A DNA stretch of 64,000 nucleotides from Klebsiella phage vB_KM5a1-KLB31: sequence record PP582757.1; one strand, given 5' to 3'. The translations under genes and the position numbers were made by a program. Position 1 is the stretch's first letter. Every line of letters begins with the position of its first letter. Below are positions 4,376 through 27,351 of this stretch, piece after piece. Under the pieces are notes generated by a model. The model ran no database searches. It saw only the letters and a program-made list of their open reading frames with translations, and had not been told where the DNA came from.

Positions 4376-5875
4376 ATGCAAATTAATGTTCATTTTGAAA
4401 ATTTTAGTCATGTTCGTATTGAGTGTGATGAATCCACTTTTTACGAATTAAGAGACTACTTCAGTTTTGAAGCTGATGGGTACAAATTTAATCCAAAATA
4501 CAAGTACGGTCAATGGGACGGACGAATTCGTCTTTTAGACTACAATAAACTTTTACCATTTGGTCTTGTAAGCCAGATGAAGAAATTTGCATCTCAATTC
4601 GAGTATCATCTTTGGATTGACCCGAAGATTGCAGAAAAAGAAGAGATTAGCAAAGACGATTACACTAAGTGGATTGATGGCCTTGATATTTACTCAGGCA
4701 ATACTCAAATCAAGCCACATTGGTATCAATTTGACGCCGTGTTGCATGGCCTGACAAATCGTCGCTCGATTCTGAATTTACCTACATCGGCAGGTAAATC
4801 ATTAATTCAGGCACTCCTGGCACGTTATTACGTTGAGAACTATGAGGGTAAAATTTTAATCCTGGTCCCAACAACTGCTCTGGTCGATCAGATGATTAAT
4901 GACTTTGCCGATTATCGTTTATTTGGCAAACAGCATATGCTTGGTATTCGTGCTGGGACAAAGCGTGATTCTGATGCAATGATTTATGTTTCAACATACC
5001 AAACCGCAGTGAAACAACCTAAAGAATGGTTCCATCAGTTCGGCATGTTTATGAACGATGAATGCCACTTAGCGACCGGTAAATCTATTTCTACCATTAT
5101 TGAAGGGTTAACGAACTGTATGTTTAAGTTCGGTCTTTCAGGTTCTCTGAAAGATGGCAAAGCCAACCTTATGCAATACATGGGTCTGTTTGGTGATATC
5201 TTCCGTCCTGTTTCAACATCACAATTAATGGATGAAGGCGCGGTAACCGAACTGAAAATTAACTCAATCTTCCTTCGTTATCCAGATGAATTCTGCGTTA
5301 AGATGAAAGGTAAAGATTACCAGACCGAAATTAAAGTTATCACTAAAGCTGATAGACGAAATAAATGGATTGCAAATTTAGCCGTTAAATTAGCTAAGAA
5401 AGACGAGAACGTATTCTTGATGTTCAAAAATATCGAACACGGTAAAAAGCTCGTCGAACTAGTTAAAGAAGCAGGTGGCAAGCAAGTTTATTATGTGTCA
5501 GGTGAAGTGACTACTGAAGTTCGTAATGCTCTTAAAGTTATGGCCGAAAACGGTAAGGGTATTATCGTAGTAGCTTCTTATGGCGTATTCTCTACTGGTA
5601 TCAGTGTTAAGAACTTACACCATATTATTTTCGCTCATCCGGTGAAATCTAAAATTATTGTCTTGCAGACAATTGGCCGAGTTCTTCGTAAACATGATTC
5701 TAAAGATGTTGCCCAAGTATGGGACATCATTGATGATATGGGTGTTAAACCTAAATCAGCATCTGCTAAAAAGAAATATGTTCACTTGAACTACGCGTTG
5801 AAACACGCATTAGAGCGTATCCAACGATATGCTGATGAAAAATTTAACTACGTTATGAAACAGGTAGAAATCTAA
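4376..5875 (+). CDS. uvsW: UvsW DNA helicase (SF2, RecG-like)
   Basis: Strong similarity to T4 UvsW as I recall it (VHF.DFSHVRI.C.ESTF.ELRD.FSFEADGY.FNP, LNLPTSAGKS Walker A, MNDECH DEAH-like box, VASYGVFSTGISVKNLHH). 499 aa. Confidence 0.92.
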   Translation: MQINVHFENFSHVRIECDESTFYELRDYFSFEADGYKFNPKYKYGQWDGRIRLLDYNKLLPFGLVSQMKKFASQFEYHLWIDPKIAEKEEISKDDYTKWIDGLDIYSGNTQIKPHWYQFDAVLHGLTNRRSILNLPTSAGKSLIQALLARYYVENYEGKILILVPTTALVDQMINDFADYRLFGKQHMLGIRAGTKRDSDAMIYVSTYQTAVKQPKEWFHQFGMFMNDECHLATGKSISTIIEGLTNCMFKFGLSGSLKDGKANLMQYMGLFGDIFRPVSTSQLMDEGAVTELKINSIFLRYPDEFCVKMKGKDYQTEIKVITKADRRNKWIANLAVKLAKKDENVFLMFKNIEHGKKLVELVKEAGGKQVYYVSGEVTTEVRNALKVMAENGKGIIVVASYGVFSTGISVKNLHHIIFAHPVKSKIIVLQTIGRVLRKHDSKDVAQVWDIIDDMGVKPKSASAKKKYVHLNYALKHALERIQRYADEKFNYVMKQVEI

Positions 5876-6158: not shown

Positions 6159-6326
6159 CTAGATTAGTAATTGAGTTTCATTAAGCTGCTCTTCGGTATT
6201 TTCCGTAACTGGCAAGCTTTGGGCATAATTATAACATGGACCTGGATGGCAAGGGCCTTTGTCTGAATGAACAACCAATACAGAGTCGATTGGAGTTTTA
6301 CAGACAACACAAATCTGTTCTGACAT
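6159..6326 (-). CDS. small Cys-rich protein at the uvsY.-2 position; unlisted 55-aa ORF
   Basis: Hand translation of the minus strand gives MSEQICVVCKTPIDSVLVVHSDKGPCHPGPCYNYAQSLPVTENTEEQLNETQLLI. Strong SD (CTAAGGAGACAATC ATG). Contains CxxC and CHPGPC. Below the 60-aa cut-off of the track. Confidence 0.55.
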   Translation of the reverse strand: MSEQICVVCKTPIDSVLVVHSDKGPCHPGPCYNYAQSLPVTENTEEQLNETQLLI

Positions 6327-6358
6327 GATTGTCTCCTTAGTTTCTTTTACAAATTTAT

Positions 6359-6790
6359 TTATACATCACCTGCTTCGAACTTGCGAATTTCATGCATAGT
6401 TTTAAGATTAAAACCACGTGCCTTGATTGCATCAAGAGCAGAACTAGCAAAGTCTTGCAACAGTTGCCAATATTGAATGCTTGTATCAATCTTTAACAGA
6501 CTTGAATCAGCAGCCAATACGGTTTTCATTTCGGACCTTTCATATTGGTCCATACACACTTCTTCGCCTGGCTCACCACGACCAGTATAGAAATCCAATG
6601 CCTTTTTACCAGCAGTCTTTTTCTGAATTTCCAACCTCATGATTTCCTTCTTACAGTTACTATAAAGGCGAAGCCACTTGCTGTGCAGCAAGACGTTGTT
6701 CTGTACTTCCCACTGCAATTTAGTACTGTCAATCTTTAAATCACCATCCAATTCATCTTGGAAAGCTTCTAACTTAAACTCTACTGCCAT
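6359..6790 (-). CDS. uvsY: UvsY recombination mediator
   Basis: Similarity to T4 UvsY as I recall it (IDSTKLQ, NNV.L.SKWL, MKTVL.AD, LQYW.LL.DF.S.ALDAIK.RGF). 143 aa. Confidence 0.85.
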   Translation of the reverse strand: MAVEFKLEAFQDELDGDLKIDSTKLQWEVQNNVLLHSKWLRLYSNCKKEIMRLEIQKKTAGKKALDFYTGRGEPGEEVCMDQYERSEMKTVLAADSSLLKIDTSIQYWQLLQDFASSALDAIKARGFNLKTMHEIRKFEAGDV

Positions 6791-6848
6791 AATGTTTTCC
6801 TGTTAAACAACCCATAGACCCATTATAACATCACATTCCAGGGAGCAA

Positions 6849-7238
6849 TTAGGCTGATGCCGACAACTGAACTCTGATTTGCTCTAAAGTATCTGGGTCA
6901 TCGACAATACTGAACTGAACTGTGACTATGACGGTGTTATCATCATAGATTGGAGTTACTTGGACCGTTAGACGTGAAATACGTGGTTCGAAGTTCCGCA
7001 CAGCGGAAACAATATTTCTTTGAATTGTATCAGCAATTAATGGTGACATGTTTTCGAATAACTGGTCACTGATATCGCATCCAAAATCAGGCATAAAAGG
7101 GCGTGAACCCTTACGTGTGGTTATAATACCTAAAAGACTGTTTTTTACTGCTCGAGCACCAACAACCTTAGCAACGTCATGCTTCCAGTCTTGAGACATT
7201 TCGGGGCTTAAATCCGAATACATCAAATTGATATTCAT
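6849..7238 (-). CDS. 25: baseplate wedge protein gp25
   Basis: Near-identical blocks to T4 gp25 as I recall it (KNSLLGIITTRKGSRPF.P.FGCD.SDQLFENM.PL.ADT..RNI.SAVRN.EPRI). 129 aa. Confidence 0.9.
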   Translation of the reverse strand: MNINLMYSDLSPEMSQDWKHDVAKVVGARAVKNSLLGIITTRKGSRPFMPDFGCDISDQLFENMSPLIADTIQRNIVSAVRNFEPRISRLTVQVTPIYDDNTVIVTVQFSIVDDPDTLEQIRVQLSASA

Positions 7239-7867
7239 TATAACACCTTAAAGAACTCTTTAAGTCCCTTGATAACATGGACATGAGATTCGCCACACTC
7301 ACAAGAGATAGGCACTGCCAACTGTATTTGAGGGCGTGTTAACATCAAAGATATACGTTCGATGTCTTCAGTTGTTATGGCCGCATAAAGGTCATCGATT
7401 TCAGCGTCTGAAAGATCGTCTACTGAAAGGGTGGTTCCGTCCGGGATAACAATGTATTCAATACATTCTGCTACCATTTGTGCTTTGTTCTTATCTTGGA
7501 ATAAGCCTGGGTAACGGAATTTTACTTTGAATTCTTTAAATGAGTACAGAAGCTCTTCTGTTGAATCTACACTCGCATGCATAAGGTTAATTGGGATAGG
7601 AATTTCTTTCCCACAGGCGCATTCCCAGGTACGTTCTACGTTAACTTCGCCTATAGAGTTAGCCCAAAGATTAACTAACAGAAGTTCACCTTCATGACGA
7701 GTCAAATCTTTTGCATCGGTACATTTTTTAATCAATGAAAGAATCTCATCTTCCATACGACCTTCTAATTTAGCTTGTAAAAGGTCTTTGTATTCTCTTA
7801 GTGTGAACGCTCTGCACTGGATATCTGTTTTGCCGATGCGAGCAATAAATTTATATTCATTAGGCAT
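7238..7867 (-). CDS. 26: baseplate hub subunit gp26
   Basis: 209 aa. Sits between 25 and the divergent gene 51 exactly as in T4. Stop overlaps the gp25 start. Confidence 0.75.
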   Translation of the reverse strand: MPNEYKFIARIGKTDIQCRAFTLREYKDLLQAKLEGRMEDEILSLIKKCTDAKDLTRHEGELLLVNLWANSIGEVNVERTWECACGKEIPIPINLMHASVDSTEELLYSFKEFKVKFRYPGLFQDKNKAQMVAECIEYIVIPDGTTLSVDDLSDAEIDDLYAAITTEDIERISLMLTRPQIQLAVPISCECGESHVHVIKGLKEFFKVL

Positions 7868-7887
7868 AATTAGCTCCTCTTATATGA

Positions 7888-7901
7888 CTATTTATAAATA
7901 C
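7888..7901. promoter_or_regulatory. bidirectional late promoter: palindromic TATTTATAAATA gives TATAAATA on both strands (genes 51 and 26)
   Basis: 12-bp perfect palindrome centred between the divergent gene 26 and gene 51 starts. Both genes are late baseplate genes. Confidence 0.5.
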
Positions 7902-7917
7902 ACGAAAGGAGATACTC

Positions 7918-8667
7918 ATGGCTAATATTATTCGTTGTAAAATGCCGGACGGTGTCCATCGTTTCAAGCCGTTTACAGTCGCAGACTATAGAGATTTTCT
8001 TTTGGTTCGAAATGATATGGGCAATAAGTCCGAAGAAGAACAAATCATTCTTTTAGATGAAATGCTTGAAGATTATTTCGGAGATTATCCGAAATCTTGG
8101 CGTCCATACATGTTCGTCCAGGTTTATTCCGGTTCGATAGGTAAAACAAAAATACCTGTTATGTATGAATGCAGCACTTGTGGTAAAAACAAACAGTTTT
8201 TATTTAACATGGCTCAAGATGAACTTAAAGCTCCTTCAATAGAAGTGGCAGGCCTTAAAATAGAATTTAACTTCCCGGATGAAATACTAGAAGACAAATC
8301 TGAAATGATTCTTTCTACCATAAAGTCGGTTGAAGATTCTAATGCAAAATACAGTTGGGCTTCATTATCCGAAGAAGAACAAGTCGCAGTAATTGATGCC
8401 ATTGATTTAGAATCCTTTGAGTCTCTTATGAAGCAGATGGCTCCAATTCGATTCGATATAAAGTTTGGATGTTGTCAGAAACGTCATATTGTTTACGAAC
8501 GTTTCATCGACATTTTCAGATTATTACTGAACCCTGATGAAGTTTTTTCCTTCTATCAAGTAAACCATTTGCTGGTCAAAAATCATTACAATTTAGAAAG
8601 TATTATGCAAATGATTCCTATTGAACGCAGTATTGCACTCTCACTAGTTGAAAAGGACCTTAAATGA
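7918..8667 (+). CDS. 51: baseplate hub assembly catalyst gp51
   Basis: 249 aa, same size as T4 gp51. Position 26/51/27. CxxC..CxxC-like Cys pairs. Confidence 0.75.
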
Positions 8668-9851
8668 GTAAGACTATTCAACGTGAAGGTTATCCTAATA
8701 TAAGCATCAAACTTTATCAAGACTATGATGCTTGGCTTGAACACCGATTTGTCGAGTTGGCTGCAACCTTTACTACATTAACAATGCGTGATGGCCTTTA
8801 CGGTCGCAATGAAGGCCTTCTTCAGTTTTATGATGCAAAGAACCTTCACACTAAAATGGATGGCGAACAGATTATTCAAATATCCGTAGGTAACGCTAAT
8901 ACTCAGCGTACTCAAACCAGGATATATGGATGCAAACACTTTTCAGTGAGTGTTGACTCTAAAGGTGATAACATAATCACAATCCAATTGGCAACCATTC
9001 ATTCATTAGAAGATTTGAAGTTTAGTCGGATGTTCTTCCCTAGTGTTCAAGAAACACTGACAGAAATGATTGGTGTGATTTATCAAGACAGACCTTTGAT
9101 AGCTCCTCCTATAAATGGAATAAACGTTTATGTTCCTAACGTTCCATGGTGTGACAATATAAACCAATACATGAGCTTTGTTCGTGATATGGGTCTCGCC
9201 GTTGATTCAGACAAATTCGTATTTGTCTGGGAAGATATCGACGGGATTGAAATCATGGATTACGAAATGATGATAGCCCAAGAGCCTATTAATTTCGTCG
9301 TCGGTGAACCACGACTCATTGGTCAATATGTTCAGGACCTTGAAACTCCTATTGCTTTTGATTTTGAATGGCTTGTAAAAGCTAACCAACATTCACGTAA
9401 GCCGTATGAGAACGCTACTGTGTATGCACATAGTTTTCTTGATAAAAGTGCTACACGAGTTACATTTGGTGAAGGACAAAACAGTATTCTGGTTTCTCGC
9501 TCCGGTGCTTATTCTGAAGCAACATATCGAAATGGTTTTGAAGAGGCCCAACGATTAATTACTATGACACAATATGATGGGTATGCTCATTGTAAGACGT
9601 TTGGTAATTTTGAATTGACTCCTGGCGATAAGATTAACTTCTATGACCCTAAGAACCAATTCCAGTACGATTTTTACGTAGATGAAGTTATTCACGAGAT
9701 GAGTAACAACACGTCTATAACGAACTTATACATGTTTACAAACGGCAAGGCAATTAAAGTCGAAGAGCCGCCTAAGGTTAAAAATGAACTTAAAACTTAT
9801 TCTCCCGATCAAGAAAATAACGATGAAGGGGAAGACGGTCAGTCTTCCTAA
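8664..9851 (+). CDS. 27: baseplate hub subunit gp27
   Basis: 395 aa against T4 gp27 at 391 aa. ATG overlaps the gp51 stop. Followed by 28 and 29 as in T4. Confidence 0.85.
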
Positions 9852-10308
9852 GCTTGGTCTTAAACACCACAATATGGTAAAAGATGAGAAGAACCCCTTA
9901 GTGGCTCTTAAAACTATAATGAATTCGATTCATCCTGGATTGAATGCAGCCGAAACCGACTTCATTAGTTTGCATCTTTTAGAATTCAATAACAAATTAA
10001 AAAGTGAAGTCACTAAAGATGGGTTCACTTATAAATTAGACGATGTTTATATTTGCCAAAGGCTTGAGTTCCAATTTGGTGGTAAAGAATACAAGTTTCG
10101 TTCACATGAGCCATTTGAACAATTTGGTCCTGTTGATGACGTACTGAAAACTCTTTATCTTGGTGATGATATACCAGATTTTCTGGATATGCCGGCCTTT
10201 GTTTCTAAATGGGCCGACGACATAACTAGCACAGTAGCTATTCCAGGTCCTAATGGTCCTATTAAAGGAATGCTCCAGATTATGGACCTATTAAATGAAG
10301 AAAAATAA
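9784..10308 (+). CDS. 28: baseplate hub distal subunit gp28
   Basis: 174 aa, about the size of T4 gp28. Overlaps the gp27 3' end by 68 nt. An alternative start at 9823 (MKGKTV) is possible. Stop overlaps the gene 29 start. Confidence 0.7.
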
Positions 10309-12061
10309 TTCCGAATCACAGAGCTTCCGTCGTAAGAAGCTCATTGAAGATATGGCGCCTCAACGTCGTGCTGAGGCCCTGGCGTCTTCTCAAAATGAAG
10401 AGCTAAGTAACATTGCCGATCAGATGAAAGACGCCCAGGCGGCGTCTGAGATGACTGCAGAGGCTATTGAGAACAAAGGCAACCAGATTATAGGTTCTTT
10501 GAATAATCTGGATAAAAGCATTAAAGACGTAGTCGCCGGTACGGAAATAACGTCCGAAGCAGTAGAACGTGTAGCCGTTAATACCCAAGCAACGACCGGA
10601 GCAGCAAGAGCAATTTCCGCAAAGATTTCTAAGCTGACCGATATGCTTGCGGAGAAATTGTCTAGTGAGGTTAAAAAATCTCCTAGCACTCAAGAAACAA
10701 CCACTTTAGCCGCTCTTCAAGAAGCTATGCCTATTCAGGTTGAACAACCTAAATTGGAAGAACTTATAGCTCAATTGATACCACAAGGTCCTATTCCAGA
10801 AGATGCCCCTTTCTTACCACCTCCGACGACTCCACAGGAAGAAACGGAAAATAAGAAAGACAAGGATAAAAAGACCGATGATGCCGGCTTTAAAATGGAT
10901 GACCTCCTTAAAATAACTAAAGGCGGTTTTAAGGCTGTTGTTTCTGTTTCTGATAAAATTGCTAGTATGCTTTTCAAATATACTGTGACGGCTTTAGCTA
11001 ATGCAGCTAAATTTGCTGCCCAGATGTTTGCATTAGTCCTTGGTATCGACATGATTCAAGTCTACTTCCAGTATTTCATGAAGCAATTTGAAGCCGGATG
11101 GAAAGACTTCAATGACAAATTCAAGGAATGGGGACCAATTCTAGAAGGCTTAATGACCTTTGCTAAAAATGCCCAGACGATGTTCAGTGAGAAAAACTGG
11201 ATTGGATTGGCTACTGCAATAGTTAAAGGAATGGTATCGCTGACAGAAAATATGGCAAATCTTTTAATGTTAGGCATCGGCAAATTAACTGCCGCCATGC
11301 TCCGTGCATTAGGTTTTAATGATGCAGCCGATAATGTTGAAGGTTCATCTTTAATGACGTATCAGCAGAAAACTGGTGCCACATTAGATGACCAGGACCA
11401 GACAACTTTGGCTAAATACCAAGACCGTAAAGATGCTGAAGCATTTGAAGCTAAAAAGGACATGGACAAACGCTTTAAAGGTAAAGACAAAGGACTTGCC
11501 GTAGCCGAGCAATACGGAACTGTTTCAAAAGAAACAGCCGAAGAAATTCGTTCAGGTGGAATCGATTCTACATTCCGTGATATGCCAGAAGAGCAACGTC
11601 TCGACATAATCAAAAAGCGTAATAATGCCCAGGCTGATATTATTCGTCTGACTAAAACGGCCGAAGATATTATGAAGCCTGATGCAGTCGATAAGAAAAA
11701 TGCTAAAGAGTCTTATGATGATATTCAAAAACAACTTAATGACCCTGCATTAAAGGCCGCTCCTAAAGATTTAAATATGGAACAGCTTATCGATAAAATG
11801 AACAAATCACTTGAGAAATTTAATGACCAACCGGCATTAAAACCTCAGCCGATAGAACAACGTGAAGAAACCCAACAGGCTAAACGCGTTGATGAAGGTT
11901 TGAAAGCTAAAGCTTCTTCAGTAAATACTCCGGCTGGTACAGGTTTACAAAATCTGGTCCAGCAAGTGAACGTTCAGAAAAATAGTAAAACCCAGTACAA
12001 CGTGCCACCACAATCAGCTACACCTGCTCCTGGTATGCACGGTGCTACTCGAGTTAATTAA
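10295..12061 (+). CDS. 29: baseplate hub / tail tube tape-measure protein gp29
   Basis: 588 aa against about 590 in T4 gp29. Ala/Gln-rich, with coiled-coil-like N- and C-terminal regions. Synteny. Confidence 0.85.
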   Translation: MKKNNSESQSFRRKKLIEDMAPQRRAEALASSQNEELSNIADQMKDAQAASEMTAEAIENKGNQIIGSLNNLDKSIKDVVAGTEITSEAVERVAVNTQATTGAARAISAKISKLTDMLAEKLSSEVKKSPSTQETTTLAALQEAMPIQVEQPKLEELIAQLIPQGPIPEDAPFLPPPTTPQEETENKKDKDKKTDDAGFKMDDLLKITKGGFKAVVSVSDKIASMLFKYTVTALANAAKFAAQMFALVLGIDMIQVYFQYFMKQFEAGWKDFNDKFKEWGPILEGLMTFAKNAQTMFSEKNWIGLATAIVKGMVSLTENMANLLMLGIGKLTAAMLRALGFNDAADNVEGSSLMTYQQKTGATLDDQDQTTLAKYQDRKDAEAFEAKKDMDKRFKGKDKGLAVAEQYGTVSKETAEEIRSGGIDSTFRDMPEEQRLDIIKKRNNAQADIIRLTKTAEDIMKPDAVDKKNAKESYDDIQKQLNDPALKAAPKDLNMEQLIDKMNKSLEKFNDQPALKPQPIEQREETQQAKRVDEGLKAKASSVNTPAGTGLQNLVQQVNVQKNSKTQYNVPPQSATPAPGMHGATRVN

Positions 12062-22252: not shown

Positions 22253-22261
22253 CGCCATGAA

Positions 22262-22292
22262 AACAAAAATGGGAACCACTAGGGTTCCCATA
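22262..22292 (-). terminator. intrinsic terminator GGGAACC-ACTA-GGGTTCCC (copy 1 of 2 identical terminators)
   Basis: AAAAATGGGAACCACTAGGGTTCCCAT is identical to 40441-40467. Lies 3' of the small basic protein gene. Confidence 0.6.
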
Positions 22293-22295
22293 ACA

Positions 22296-22481
22296 TTATA
22301 CTGCGCGTGGCTTACCAAAGCAAGCTGCATCTGCACGTAGAACTGCACGAGCACGAGCTTGAAGTTTGCTTACCAGCTGATTGATACGCTTGTTGGACCC
22401 ACGCTTGTAGCCAGCGCGTTTAGAATCACCAACAACCACTTTTTCTACTTTCTTTGCTTTAGCTTGTTTAGCCATTTTCAT
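22296..22481 (-). CDS. small lysine/arginine-rich basic protein
   Basis: Listed ORF starts at 22526, but the SD-supported start is at the internal MKMAKQAKAKK (GGAAG ATG). About 61 aa. Confidence 0.45.
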   Translation of the reverse strand: MKMAKQAKAKKVEKVVVGDSKRAGYKRGSNKRINQLVSKLQARARAVLRADAACFGKPRAV

Positions 22482-22766
22482 CTTCCATTTCGGAGAAATA
22501 CATGGGAGCCAACAACTCTCCCGCAAGCCCTCGAGGGGTACGTTTAAACTCTTATCTGTTGCACGCCGTTAGCTTAAAGGGTCCGGGTCCGATTTCTCGA
22601 GGATAAGATATACACCGATGGATGTATAGGCCTTGAGGCGTACTCCCAATTAGCCATCGCCTTGGGGTAGCATGCACTTGCCGTTTATTTCAAGTTCGCA
22701 CTTTAGTAGCGTTCACTGAAGGTTTTGACTTATTTAACGTCGGGATAACCTACAACCATGACATCA

Positions 22767-23126: not shown

Positions 23127-23450
23127 TTATTTATACAAGCAAGGAATTGCTTTGTAATGGCAGGTCACAAATTTCTGTTTAATGTCCTTGGCTTTACGAA
23201 CACCAAGTGCAACCAGAGGATGTGGAACGTTTGCAATTTTACCTACCGGAATAGGAGTCAAATCACCAACTTCACAGAAACCTTCTGGGACATCAGGACC
23301 AATTGAATAAACTTCACACATCTCAGGCAATTCGCCTTGATGTAATTTACCAATCACAATACCACTTGCGGTAACTTCTTCGTCGCCTGCTTGTTTAGGC
23401 TCAGAAACCAGAATAATGTATTCACCTACTGCTTTAATTGGAAGTTCCAT
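23127..23450 (-). CDS. 31: co-chaperonin gp31 (GroES analogue)
   Basis: Very similar to T4 gp31 as I recall it ([61 protein letters not shown] at the C-terminus). 107 aa. Confidence 0.92.
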
Positions 23451-23507: not shown

Positions 23508-23840
23508 TTACTTACCTACGAACTGAAGCAGGTGCTCAACTTTCATACCGTTAACTGAAATCAGTTTATCGATAGAGAAGCCACGCCATTGTTTAATTGT
23601 TGCATCGAAACATGGGACCATATCGGTAGCTTCTTTACGAGGCTTGGCCGGAGATACATATGATTCAAATACTTCAGCACCAACCAGAGTTGTTACTACG
23701 GCTTTGTCGCGAGTCGCAGACATAGTACGAATAGTGCCATCGGCTTTTTCAAACACGATTTCAGATACGCCCATTGCGAGTTTAGTTTTCAGAATTTCGC
23801 GCAGAGCAATTTTTTGTTCAACAGTTAATTTAGTAGACAT
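23508..23840 (-). CDS. hypothetical protein (31.1 position)
   Basis: 110-aa ORF. Confidence 0.5.
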   Translation of the reverse strand: MSTKLTVEQKIALREILKTKLAMGVSEIVFEKADGTIRTMSATRDKAVVTTLVGAEVFESYVSPAKPRKEATDMVPCFDATIKQWRGFSIDKLISVNGMKVEHLLQFVGK

Positions 23841-23842
23841 AA

Positions 23843-24079
23843 TCAGTCCTTCAATACAGTTCGGATTTTATGAGCACCTCGTTCTCTTAAGACTTTTAAG
23901 AGTTTAAGGCATTTGTTTTTACGGTCTTTAACATAGCTTGGGTCTTCAGAGTCAACCCAATCGGTCGTATAAAGAGTCTTCCATTTAGAGAAGAATCCTT
24001 CTTTATATTCTACGGCGAAGCAAACATTGACTGCGCCATATGAACTCAGACCGGTGGTTTCGATAATACGTGATTTCAT
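23843..24079 (-). CDS. hypothetical protein (31.2 position)
   Basis: 78-aa ORF. Start overlaps the cd stop. Confidence 0.45.
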   Translation of the reverse strand: MKSRIIETTGLSSYGAVNVCFAVEYKEGFFSKWKTLYTTDWVDSEDPSYVKDRKNKCLKLLKVLRERGAHKIRTVLKD

Positions 24080-24630
24080 TATTCACCACAGAAATTACGA
24101 ATGTTTTCCCAGTTCAGCGAACGGAGATTATTACGCTGATACTCAACCACTTCAATTCCGGCTTCAAGTAGAATATCAGCCCAATTGTCAGGAGAACGGT
24201 CATAACGCTCTGCGTAAACGACTTTCTTAATACCTGACTGAGAAATAGCCTTAGTACATTCAGGACAAGGAGACGCCGTACAGTACAACGTAGCACCTTC
24301 AATTGAAGAGCCTTTACGTGCTGCAAACAGAATGGCATTCAGTTCGGCATGGATTTCATTTTTAGAAGACCATTCGCTATGAGCCGGACGATGTTCTTTG
24401 GCCAGGACTTTTAAGACACCAAAGCCACGATGAATTGGATAATCGACTTCTTTAATCCAACCTTGTTCTTCGGCATGGTCACAGCAGTTAGTTCCGCCGG
24501 CCGGAGAACCATTATAACCGGTAGAAATGATACGGCCATCTTTTTCGATAACTGCACCTACTTTCCAGGAACAGCATTTTGATTCTTGCGATATCAGGTA
24601 AGCAATTTGTAAGTAAGTGCTAGCTTTCAT
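24079..24630 (-). CDS. cd: dCMP deaminase
   Basis: Cytidine/deoxycytidylate deaminase zinc motifs HAE (CDHAEEQG) and PCxxC (ASPCPECTK). 183 aa. T4 synteny (31, cd, pseT). Confidence 0.9.
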   Translation of the reverse strand: MKASTYLQIAYLISQESKCCSWKVGAVIEKDGRIISTGYNGSPAGGTNCCDHAEEQGWIKEVDYPIHRGFGVLKVLAKEHRPAHSEWSSKNEIHAELNAILFAARKGSSIEGATLYCTASPCPECTKAISQSGIKKVVYAERYDRSPDNWADILLEAGIEVVEYQRNNLRSLNWENIRNFCGE

Positions 24631-25626
24631 TTAAATAGCCTTTTGATTAATATAAGACAGAAGCTCTTCAGTATGTTCCCAACCAATACAGGCATCTGTA
24701 ATAGAAACACCATAGAGCATATTATCAGAAATCTTTTGATTTCCTTCATGTAGATTAGATTCTATCATAATACCTTTGACAAAGGCGTTATCTGCTACCA
24801 ATCTGCCAACATGAAGTTGATTTGAGAAATAACCGGTCGCATTAGCATGACTACAGTCAACCATAACGTTATGATTAAGACTTTGAGCTGAAGCAGCAAC
24901 TACGGCTTCATTAATATCGGACTCTGAATAATTAGGTCCTTCACTACCACCACGCAATACGATATGGGTATTAACATTGCCTTCGGCATGAACGATACCT
25001 ACTTTACCATCATGGTCCATACCCATATAACGATGCGGATACGCCGCAGAAAGAATTGCATCAGTAGCAACCTTAACAGAACCATTTGTTCCATTTTTAA
25101 AGCCAACGCACATAGGCAGGCCTGAAGCAATTTCACGGTGAGTCTGGCTCTCGGTTGTACGAGCACCGATTGCGACCCAAGAGAAAATACCTGTAAGATA
25201 CTTAATCGTGAATGGGTCTAACACTTCAGTCGCTAGTGGCAGGCCTAAGCTTAATAGTTCTAAGCAAAGTTCACGAGCCATTTCGAGCCCACGGTTTATG
25301 TCAAATGAGCCATTCAATTCTGGGTCATTAATGAAACCTTTCCAACCTACAGTTGTTCTTGGTTTCTCAAAATAAACACGCATAACCAAAAGAAGATTTG
25401 GAAATTGTTTTTGTACTTCGGCTAAACGTTCACCGTATTCGAGAGCAGCTTTAGGGTCATGAATTGAACAAGGGCCTACAACAATAATTTTGCGTGGGTC
25501 TTCGCCATTCATAATCGAATTTACTTGTTCACGATGAGCAGCAACTTGTTTTTCAAGTGCCACCGTCAAAGGATATGTTTCAACCAATGTTTTTGGAGAA
25601 ATTAGTGATTCGACTAATGGTAGCAT
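24631..25626 (-). CDS. 3-deoxy-D-arabino-heptulosonate-7-phosphate (DAHP) synthase, class I alpha (AroG/F/H-like)
   Basis: Collinear with E. coli AroG over the full length as I recall it (IVVGPCSIHDP, MRVYFEKPRTTVGWKG.INDP, WVAIGARTTESQ.HRE.ASGL, VGFKNGT.G, DCSHAN, ESNL.EGNQ, ITDACIGWE). Metal ligands Cys/His/Glu/Asp are present. 331 aa. Confidence 0.9.
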   Translation of the reverse strand: MLPLVESLISPKTLVETYPLTVALEKQVAAHREQVNSIMNGEDPRKIIVVGPCSIHDPKAALEYGERLAEVQKQFPNLLLVMRVYFEKPRTTVGWKGFINDPELNGSFDINRGLEMARELCLELLSLGLPLATEVLDPFTIKYLTGIFSWVAIGARTTESQTHREIASGLPMCVGFKNGTNGSVKVATDAILSAAYPHRYMGMDHDGKVGIVHAEGNVNTHIVLRGGSEGPNYSESDINEAVVAASAQSLNHNVMVDCSHANATGYFSNQLHVGRLVADNAFVKGIMIESNLHEGNQKISDNMLYGVSITDACIGWEHTEELLSYINQKAI

Positions 25627-25635
25627 TATTTTACC

Positions 25636-25887
25636 TTAATTTTTATAAACGGAAACCGATTCTACTCGACCATCCATATGTCTAACGATATTATAATATT
25701 CTTCTGAATAAGCAAGAGTATCTTTTTCGCCTTTTTCAATGGTAATCAAATATGAAACAGGACTTTCTTGTTGAACGCGCACTTTTACGTCATCACGTCG
25801 TTCAGAGATTTTATTAATCAGGGCCTGAGCAAACTGAGGGATTGCTGCGGCGAATTCTTCGATAGAAAACTGTTTATCTGAAATCAT
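25636..25887 (-). CDS. hypothetical protein
   Basis: 83-aa ORF between the DAHP synthase gene and pseT. Confidence 0.45.
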   Translation of the reverse strand: MISDKQFSIEEFAAAIPQFAQALINKISERRDDVKVRVQQESPVSYLITIEKGEKDTLAYSEEYYNIVRHMDGRVESVSVYKN

Positions 25888-26162
25888 GCTACGGCCACCT
25901 GTACTGAATTAGCATCATAGTCCACTGTAACAAAAACATACAGCGGTTCGGTATCGCCACAATCAATTTCTACTTCGCAAGTAGAAACAAAAGAAGTATG
26001 ATTAATAGATACTTTCTGAACATCAGGAGCCAGAATAGCTAGTGCGCCAGTTACTTCAGCATGAACTTTAAGTTCGCCCGGGACATCACGTTTAGTCAGG
26101 CAATGATTACCAAGGACCTGACGGAATACCATACTTACTAATTCAGAATATTTAGGGAACAT
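25884..26162 (-). CDS. hypothetical protein
   Basis: 92-aa ORF. Stop overlaps the downstream start. Confidence 0.45.
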   Translation of the reverse strand: MFPKYSELVSMVFRQVLGNHCLTKRDVPGELKVHAEVTGALAILAPDVQKVSINHTSFVSTCEVEIDCGDTEPLYVFVTVDYDANSVQVAVA

Positions 26163-26172
26163 TTTGTTTTCC

Positions 26173-26388
26173 TCAATGGACAGTGTGAACTACGACACGA
26201 ACAACGAATGCTACTACAGGGTCGTTGATTGGTGGGAACTCAACGTAATATTCTCCCTGATAGCGTTTGTTCAGGTCAGTACGGATTTCAGCAATAGCAT
26301 TAATCAACGCAGGGTTGAATACTGCACCTTGGAGCTTACGAAGCATTTTATAGGCTTCTTGCTCGACTTCATGATGTTTATCGTACAT
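26173..26388 (-). CDS. hypothetical protein
   Basis: Listed to 26421, but the 5' end lies in the promoter cassette. Internal ATG (MYDKHHEV) with GAGGAA SD preferred. Confidence 0.45.
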   Translation of the reverse strand: MYDKHHEVEQEAYKMLRKLQGAVFNPALINAIAEIRTDLNKRYQGEYYVEFPPINDPVVAFVVRVVVHTVH

Positions 26389-26394
26389 ATCATT

Positions 26395-27351
<957 letters not shown>

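Follow-up and report, generated by a model that had tools for sequence, protein, structure and literature searches.

The locus and the gene

The stretch of 64,000 nucleotides analysed here (hereafter the window) comes from Klebsiella phage vB_KM5a1-KLB31 (sequence record PP582757.1) and contains on its minus strand, at positions 24631 to 25626, an open reading frame (ORF) of 331 amino acids running from ATG to TAA, which is the gene of a DAHP synthase (DAHP, the 7-phosphate of 3-deoxy-D-arabino-heptulosonate). The gene lies directly upstream of cd, at the position occupied by cd.1 in T4, and its stop codon directly abuts the start codon of cd (TAAATG). A 9-nt spacer, TAA-GGTAAAATA-ATG, precedes its own start, and a Shine-Dalgarno-like AAGG spans the stop codon of the upstream ORF. 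The GC content of the gene, 0.40, shows no difference from the surrounding sequence.

The same-strand order of genes in the window is pseT, an ORF matching phrog_3609, a DUF7355 ORF, a DUF7320 ORF, the DAHP synthase gene, cd, a 78-aa ORF, a WYL_2 ORF and gp31, and corresponds to the arrangement found in T4, pseT - cd.x - cd - 31.2 - 31.1 - 31. An initial annotation, made from the sequence alone, had placed the gene between cd and pseT in an interval where T4 has small cd.x ORFs only; this is correct, the T4 interval containing just cd.1-cd.5.

Family, fold and catalytic residues

The ORF encodes a type I-alpha, AroF-like DAHP synthase. The PF00793 (DAHP_synth_1) profile is matched over positions 8-269 of 270 with E=9.1e-78 and 261 bits against a cut-off of 25.5, the NCBIfam model TIGR00034 (aroFGH) with 433 bits against 173, and the subfamily model PRK12755 with 456 bits against 343. 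The phage profile phrog_5045 is matched end to end (residues 1-330, E=4.8e-174). The scores stay below the curated equivalog cut-offs of the AroG model (374.8 vs. 568) and the AroH model (393.3 vs. 463). The best solved sequence relative is E. coli AroF (PDB code 6agm, E=1e-105), and in the alignment with AroG, AroF and AroH from E. coli MG1655, which comprised 16 sequences, the window protein is 51% identical to AroF, 48% to AroG and 46% to AroH.

The AlphaFold2 model, built from a 74-sequence alignment, has a mean predicted local distance difference test score (pLDDT) of 92.6 and a predicted template modeling score (pTM) of 0.92. Foldseek superimposes it on the N. meningitidis and E. coli DAHP synthase (DAH7PS) structures with TM scores of 0.93-0.96 and an rmsd of 1.4-1.8 Å. 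Strands 198-203 and 209-214 of the model correspond to the β6a/β6b hairpin of the (β/α)8 barrel. The profile search, the homolog search and the structure prediction thus bear out the class I-alpha DAHP synthase of 331 residues proposed initially, and that the protein is a real DAHP synthase is close to certain. The description of it as full-length holds for the catalytic barrel, which is complete, but not for the chain as a whole: the protein is 17-25 residues shorter than AroG, AroF and AroH, some 8-9 residues being absent at the N-terminus, while deletions of 5 and 3 residues occur near the C-terminus.

All four metal ligands are intact: C53 in the CSIHD motif, H260 in DCSHAN, E289 in MIES and D311 in ITDAC, corresponding to C61, H268, E302 and D326 of AroG, and they are invariant in 16/16 aligned sequences. 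The initial annotation had identified the Cys, His and Asp correctly, but had taken the Glu of EGNQ for the fourth ligand; this residue, E294, is not invariant, and AroG E302 aligns to E289 instead. Ten substrate-binding residues are conserved as well, namely R83, K88-P89-R90-T91, G154-A155-R156, K177 and R225. Their AroG equivalents are R92, K97-T100, G163-R165, K186 and R234, which we take to be the residues that bind phosphoenolpyruvate (PEP) and erythrose-4-phosphate (E4P).

The inhibitor pocket

In AroG, residues D6, D7 and I10 contributed by the partner subunit presumably form part of the inhibitor site. The phage clade to which the window protein belongs starts at the equivalent of I10, and its first 8-12 residues are absent, including the equivalents of D6 and D7. 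The positions 150, 151, 180 and 209 of AroG are occupied in the window protein by I141, K142, P171 and Y200 (P150I, Q151K, S180P and F209Y). The pattern [I/P][K/R]P at AroG positions 150/151/180 is found in 25/25 clade members, a single one having Pro at 150 and a single one Arg at 151, whereas among the 99 nearest cellular homologs Q151 is present in 96 and S180 in all. F209Y and the loss of D6/D7 likewise hold for essentially all of the 25 members. Eleven positions separate the clade from these 99 homologs. Four of the eleven are known inhibitor-pocket residues, several others (F144, L156, G160 and T223) flank pocket residues in sequence, and none is among the 14 catalytic and substrate residues that were checked. 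The exhaustive search of cluster representatives, which covered 1.84 billion proteins, turned up no close relative in which the signature I-K-P-Y is complete.

The consequences of changes at these positions are documented for the bacterial and yeast enzymes. In AroG, P150L makes the enzyme completely Phe-resistant, S180F, L175D, F209A/S and V221A are also resistant, and the bound inhibitor is contacted at its main chain by the side chains of Q151 and S180, which are Q152 and S181 in AroF (PMC9529685). For the yeast enzyme ARO4, Q166K serves as a standard allele with feedback resistance (PMC5879953; PMC7513737). The motif P165-Q166-Y167 of chain 1hfb places ARO4 Q166 at the same position as K142 of the phage protein, and ARO4 G226, for which the 1og0 variant has Ser, corresponds to G202 of the window protein.

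Judged by its residues, the aromatic amino acid inhibitor site of the AroF/AroG/AroH-type isozymes is not kept in the clade. Because AroG P150L and S180F and ARO4 Q166K are resistant at pocket positions that are replaced here, the enzyme is predicted, with moderate confidence, to be insensitive to Tyr, Phe and Trp. The initial annotation had remarked that the N-terminal allosteric region differs from that of AroG, which is indeed so, and had suggested a bypass of host feedback inhibition. The replacement of P150, Q151 and S180 together with the missing D6/D7 strengthens that suggestion.

The representative search also returned two long proteins of 799 aa (P0121) and 730 aa (P0123). They are fused double enzymes, each containing a tandem pair of complete DAHP synthase domains whose PQ/S pockets are canonical.

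Distribution and evolution of the phage gene

The gene is already known, as an annotated and widespread member of a known phage family. A 3.4-kb block of the window is 97% identical to the Edwardsiella ictaluri phages PEi20 and PEi26, the former placed in Kanagawavirus in RefSeq, and the nearest homolog of the window protein, ORF-233 of PEi20 (YP_009190391.1), is 99% identical, lies between cd and cd.2 and is named phospho-2-dehydro-3-deoxyheptonate aldolase in RefSeq. A tblastn search found a full-length homolog in 212 deposited phage records, many annotated as DAHP synthase. Identity is 76-77% for Mosigvirus coliphages and Shigella phages, about 68% for Serratia and Erwinia phages, about 66% for Klebsiella phages and 58-59% for Proteus phages. 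Two genome papers refer briefly to the phage gene and class it among auxiliary metabolic genes (PMC11845039, PMC8022965).

Annotation of the family is inconsistent across GenBank phage records (e.g., AP014715 for PEi26, MK327933, MK373784 and PQ671645), the labels in use being ‘hypothetical protein’ (PEi26 and several others), ‘aroF Tyr-sensitive’, ‘AroG’ and ‘phosphate synthase I alpha’. The residues of the pocket give no justification for the labels that name a particular isozyme, Tyr-sensitive and AroG.

Among 5.8 billion proteins searched, 24 cluster representatives with a length of 319-343 aa showed 55-99% identity to the window protein; after a clear break came cellular enzymes of about 341-385 aa with at most 56% identity. 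No cellular protein above 53% identity was found in the exhaustive representative search. The window protein and the 24 short forms are monophyletic in 50/50 bootstrap neighbor-joining trees, and the stem of the clade is six times the median internal branch. Its most basal members come from phage contigs: P0024 lies in an uncultured T4-like contig, on which the genes run alc ... pseT - ORF - DAHP synthase - cd, and P0021 shares its contig with a gene that matches the T4 Y05Q family. The sister of the clade in the neighbor-joining tree is a single bacterial sequence (P0029), which is too weak a basis for naming the donor lineage, and the attempt was dropped.

The same locus is occupied in Mosigvirus SF, Bragavirus Pm5461, PEi20 of Kanagawavirus and the uncultured T4-like contig. 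The GC content at third codon positions (GC3), 0.27, and the codon usage are like those of the neighboring phage genes, in comparison with a GC3 of 0.50 for E. coli aroF. The ratio of non-synonymous to synonymous substitution rates (dN/dS) is 0.04 against PEi20 and 0.14-0.28 against the Mosigvirus and Bragavirus copies, for which dS is saturated. The gene is absent in T4, RB69, Kosakonia 305 and Kanagawavirus ZX14; in the latter precisely the cassette is missing, and cd starts 2 nt after the y13E stop.

Clade monophyly, conserved synteny, phage-like codons and the dN/dS of 0.04 indicate an old phage gene that is under selection, vertically maintained and occasionally lost. A recent host origin was rejected in view of the phage-like composition and codon usage and the low identity of the cellular homologs. 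The gene is an auxiliary metabolic gene of a lytic phage, given its phage context, its variable presence (absent in ZX14, RB69 and T4), its dN/dS and the category of PHROG 5045, ‘moron, auxiliary metabolic gene and host takeover’. The initial description of it as an acquired auxiliary metabolic gene fits the clean cassette, present or absent among close relatives, but not the age of the gene, which is no recent acquisition.

In the Proteus phage Pm5461 two extra small ORFs lie between the DAHP synthase gene and cd (4457-5016). The tight stop-start junction of the two genes is therefore not universal.

Expression

Beginning with the small ORF next to pseT and ending with cd, the genes follow one another without gaps. 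Since the cd start abuts the DAHP synthase stop, co-transcription with cd is likely, and early or middle expression of the two is plausible. No match to the late-promoter motif TATAAATA was found near the gene. The sole terminator-like match in the block is weak and lies inside the ORF.

The best σ70-like match upstream of the block, TTTACA-17-TATGAT with a TG, is a candidate promoter. The phrog_3609 ORF probably starts at its internal Met at 26388: residue 12 is the first that the PHROG match covers, and the PEi20 annotation gives 71 aa. A start at this position leaves a 60-nt gap after pseT, and the gap holds the σ70-like match (26445-26417).

Other features of the region

The features of the gene and its surroundings are collected in Table 1. 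No tRNA gene was found by ARAGORN in the whole 64-kb window. On the minus strand, a small basic 30.9-like ORF is followed at 22258-22287 by a strong hairpin with a run of T after it, GGGAACC-CTAGT-GGTTCCC-ATTTTTGTTTT. An Rfam scan of the 20-30 kb interval gave a single sub-threshold match, to sroE, which coincides with this terminator hairpin and was dismissed. Upstream of the 30.9-like ORF, positions 22480-22760 form an ORF-poor segment of about 250 nt that is unusually GC-rich (0.46).

Table 1. Features of the DAHP synthase locus in the window.
Feature	Position	Strand	Remark
Cpn10-like gp31	23127-23450	-	
WYL_2 ORF	23508-23840	-	
78-aa ORF without a name, downstream of cd	23843-24079	-	
cd (dCMP deaminase)	24079-24630	-	start abuts DAHP synthase stop
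DAHP synthase coding sequence, 331 aa	24631-25626	-	type I-alpha, AroF-like, phage-specific clade
D311 codon	24694-24696	-	metal ligand (AroG D326)
E289 codon	24760-24762	-	metal ligand (AroG E302), MIES motif
H260 codon	24847-24849	-	metal ligand (AroG H268)
Y200-M201-G202	25021-25029	-	strand equivalent to AroG F209-L210-S211; Gly as in AroF G212 and ARO4 G226
P171 codon	25114-25116	-	replaces inhibitor-contacting Ser (AroG S180, AroF S181)
D137-P-F-T-I141-K142-Y143	25198-25218	-	remodelled pocket motif (AroG D146-M-I-T-P150-Q151-Y; AroF DPNSPQY)
K88-P89-R90-T91	25354-25365	-	KPRT motif, aligned to AroG K97-T100
C53 codon	25468-25470	-	metal ligand (AroG C61)
9-nt spacer with DAHP synthase ribosome-binding site	25627-25635	-	sequence read directly
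cd.2-like ORF (DUF7320)	25636-25887	-	immediately upstream of DAHP synthase
cd.3-like ORF (DUF7355)	25884-26162	-	
Small ORF, phrog_3609	26173-26421	-	82 aa as mechanical ORF
Candidate promoter	26417-26445	-	consensus match
pseT (polynucleotide kinase/phosphatase; HAD_PNKP and AAA_33)	26449-27348	-	upstream boundary of interval

Association with arabinose-modified phages

The gene complement of PEi20 directs attention to the DNA modification of these phages. Beside its DNA polymerase gene (NC_028683, 5039-10652) PEi20 has a thymidylate-synthase-like gene labelled ‘42’, a peptidase gene, a ‘phosphoheptose isomerase’ gene (AfhF-like), a gene for a 559-aa AfhE-like protein and an arabinose-5-phosphate isomerase gene. 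A gene set of this type has recently been tied to arabinosylated 5-hydroxycytosine DNA in RB69-like phages, and the Edwardsiella phage lineage of PEi20 therefore probably has arabinosylated cytosines, although the literature searched does not mention them in PEi20. In Klebsiella phage Marfa, AfhE-like and AfhF-like genes are present (6207-11094), but no annotated arabinose-5-phosphate isomerase lies between them and the DNA polymerase gene; Marfa may rely on host KdsD/GutQ for arabinose-5-phosphate.

The arabinose module leads from ribulose 5-phosphate (Ru5P) through arabinose-5-phosphate to UDP-arabinose (PMC13326640). JS09, APCEc01, Shf125875, CHI14 and HY126, arabinose-type phages named with RB69-type arabinose-module genes (PMC6024577; for HY126, PMC13326640), are also among the DAHP synthase matches, and phiC120 has an ORF with a DAHP synthetase domain (PMC8022965). 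The RB69-type arabinosyltransferase (ORF003c) was considered as a marker of co-occurrence and rejected in favor of the AfhE-like enzyme: at E<=1e-5 its homologs are found in Escherichia, Shigella and Acinetobacter phages, and the phages of Klebsiella, Proteus, Serratia, Enterobacter and Edwardsiella yielded none.

The AfhE-like enzyme is found by tblastn in 365 records. The comparison with DAHP synthase was made by counts per host genus and by spot checks. Records with DAHP synthase and with AfhE-like matches number 24 and 24 for Klebsiella phages, 7 and 7 for Proteus, 6 and 9 for Serratia, 4 and 9 for Enterobacter, 125 and 177 for Escherichia, and 4 and 57 for Acinetobacter. No Tequatrovirus is among the DAHP synthase matches listed, and T4 is without the gene. 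By these counts the carriers of the DAHP synthase gene appear to be a subset of the arabinose-module phages. An obligate coupling of the two was rejected, since the gene is absent from two phages that possess the module, RB69 and Enterobacter phage Q7622.

Proposed function and alternatives

We regard it as fairly probable, on the sequence evidence, that the gene encodes a functional type I-alpha DAHP synthase which is insensitive to aromatic amino acids and keeps shikimate flux open during infection. In this mechanism a gene of an old T4-like-phage clade, descended from an AroF-like (Tyr-type) enzyme, would be transcribed with the pseT-cd block and without a late promoter. Its metal-dependent product is predicted to condense PEP and E4P to DAHP with release of Pi, the first committed step of the shikimate pathway. 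The catalytic apparatus would have been kept, while the N-terminal residues closing the inhibitor site were lost and the pocket was rebuilt, with the result that Tyr, Phe and Trp would not switch the enzyme off. In the infected cell carbon would then enter the shikimate pathway whatever the aromatic amino acid pools, and aromatic amino acids and/or chorismate-derived cofactors would be supplied for phage production. Both the physiological benefit and the timing of expression are predictions.

Several observations weigh against this interpretation. The counts of promoter and terminator sites in the region do not exceed those of shuffled controls. Two of the pocket changes, P-to-I and S-to-P, differ from the tested P-to-L and S-to-F, and only Q-to-K is identical to a tested allele. 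Nor are the changes restricted to phages: in a diverse cellular sample of 150 representatives of 50%-identity clusters, drawn from 1.84 billion proteins and containing 153 domains, Pro occupies the S180 position in 23/153 domains and Lys the Q151 position in 5/153, and the notion that the pocket changes are unique to phages was rejected. The literature on phage DAHP synthases consists of mentions at the level of annotation, and no experimental work on any member of the clade was found in it. Finally, the pocket is more conserved within the clade than the protein as a whole, with an entropy of 0.27 compared with 1.0, which fits another role, such as the binding of a different ligand or the holding of the dimer, better than simple loss. 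The pocket may thus have gained a new role rather than none.

The conservation of the pocket is also an argument for an enzyme that is still allosteric and responds, in a re-specified pocket, not to an aromatic amino acid but to another metabolite of importance in infection, for example chorismate, prephenate, a sugar phosphate or a nucleotide. Simple loss of regulation predicts drift, yet the remodelled pocket is near-invariant among clade members that are 55-99% identical to the window protein. The model keeps the strands of the hairpin that make up the site (E198-203 and E209-214), and an anionic ligand could find a partner in the new Lys. Against this, the N-terminal residues with which the neighboring subunit completes the site are deleted, and the identical Q-to-K change in yeast simply gives resistance. 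The data indicate no candidate ligand, and the conservation could equally reflect a structural role at the dimer interface. Retained allostery of this kind is unlikely, though it is the strongest of the competitors.

Other alternatives concern the fate of the carbon. A deregulated DAHP synthase could be tied to the arabinosyl-hydroxycytosine modification, either as a sink for E4P and PEP which reshapes flux toward Ru5P and arabinose-5-phosphate or as a protection of aromatic synthesis against side effects of the arabinose pathway; such a functional link to arabinosylated DNA is speculative, and we think it rather doubtful. In the narrower form, judged a little less probable still, an unregulated and irreversible drain on E4P and PEP would draw the non-oxidative branch of the pentose-phosphate pathway toward pentose phosphates for nucleotides and UDP-arabinose, the re-routing of carbon and not the making of aromatics being the main role of the gene. 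A variant has the phage copy replacing a host DAHP synthase poisoned by high arabinose-5-phosphate. The nesting of DAHP synthase carriers within AfhE-like carriers by host-genus counts speaks for such a link, as do the isomerase, AfhE-like and AfhF-like genes beside gp43 in PEi20, the AfhE-like and AfhF-like genes in Marfa, and the absence of Tequatrovirus from the DAHP synthase matches listed. The arabinose pathway has, moreover, been proposed to draw Ru5P from the pentose-phosphate pathway (PMC13326640).

Against it, RB69, the founding arabinosyl phage, is without the gene, Q7622 has the isomerase without DAHP synthase, and 53/57 Acinetobacter records are without the gene, which makes it dispensable for the modification. 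The association is one of clades and is based on counts, and the distribution of the RB69-type transferase is a different one. Differently modified T-even phages do not recombine or exchange genes, which alone could confine the gene to one group (PMC6024577). The gene goes unmentioned in the papers on arabinose modification that were searched (PMC6024577, PMC13326640), and the metabolic logic is our own inference.

A shift of substrate, by which the enzyme would form another 3-deoxy-ulosonate, for instance from arabinose-5-phosphate in the manner of 3-deoxy-D-manno-octulosonate 8-phosphate (KDO8P) synthase, is very improbable. It is suggested by the span of PF00793, which covers both DAHP and KDO8P synthases, and by the generation of arabinose-5-phosphate in these phages; E. 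coli DAHP synthase, too, weakly accepts five-carbon sugar phosphates. Nevertheless, every residue that aligns to the substrate site of AroG is kept, KPRT included, the clade-signature positions spare the catalytic and substrate residues altogether, the best profiles are DAHP synthase equivalogs with no KdsA model among the NCBIfam matches, and the top structural matches are all DAH7PS.

The idea of a non-functional or neutral passenger recently taken from a host, which the position in a hyperplastic interval crowded with small accessory ORFs and the absence of the gene in ZX14, Kosakonia 305 and RB69 might suggest, is already effectively refuted by the dN/dS of 0.04, the phage-like codons, the monophyletic clade, the cross-genus synteny, the intact catalytic residues and the cellular homologs of no more than 56% identity.

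A feedback-insensitive enzyme supplying the shikimate pathway is thus the reading we prefer. What is added here to a known gene is a testable prediction of feedback insensitivity, the recognition of an old, selected clade, and an unproven association with arabinose-modified phages. DAHP synthase sets the entry of carbon into the synthesis of aromatic amino acids, folate and quinones, and a phage copy that ignores feedback would, if the prediction is true, mean that the virus overrides a metabolic checkpoint, beyond adding enzyme capacity. Among the 212 carrier records are many phages of E. coli, Klebsiella and Shigella that were isolated as candidates for therapy or biocontrol. A natural resistant enzyme some 20 residues shorter than AroF, AroG and AroH could, if confirmed, be of use in strains producing aromatic compounds. 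Were the link to arabinosylation true, an anti-restriction modification of DNA would be connected with a rewiring of central carbon; at minimum, the phage protein is a natural compact DAHP synthase, predicted to be feedback-insensitive, that combines three positions known from strain engineering.

Comparison with known systems

The gene is the same as ORF-233 of PEi20 and the members of PHROG 5045, from which it shows no substantive difference. Among the cellular enzymes, AroF (PDB codes 6agm and 6agl) is the closest counterpart. The phage protein passes the cut-off of the PRK12755 subfamily, its checked catalytic and substrate residues are identical to those of AroF, and it shares the Gly that marks Tyr-type enzymes (AroF G212, window G202), which suggests an AroF-like ancestry. 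It differs from AroF by the absence of residues 1-9, by Ile-Lys in place of P151-Q152 and by Pro in place of S181. AroG and AroH have the same fold, with TM scores of about 0.94-0.96 to the AroG structures 1gg1, 1kfl and 8e0x, and the same catalytic residues, although the phage protein falls below the equivalog cut-offs of both the Phe-sensitive AroG and the Trp-sensitive AroH.

With the feedback-resistant alleles AroG P150L, S180F and D146N, AroF P148L and ARO4 Q166K the clade has three positions in common, those of AroG 150, 151 and 180, and at the second of these it carries the identical Q-to-K change of ARO4. The residue mutated in AroG D146N is kept in the phage protein as D137, and the position of AroF P148 as P138. 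The alleles are single laboratory mutations, while the changes in the phages are natural, fixed, combined and under purifying selection.

The gene also resembles other phage auxiliary metabolic genes that act on central carbon, in which a host-derived enzyme is kept by a lytic phage, plausibly so that the supply of precursors is redirected in the infected cell, although the enzyme, the pathway and the hosts differ. The cyanophage transaldolase gene talC is such a phage gene acting on central carbon, and the parallel with the DAHP synthase gene of the T4-like phages is a conceptual one.

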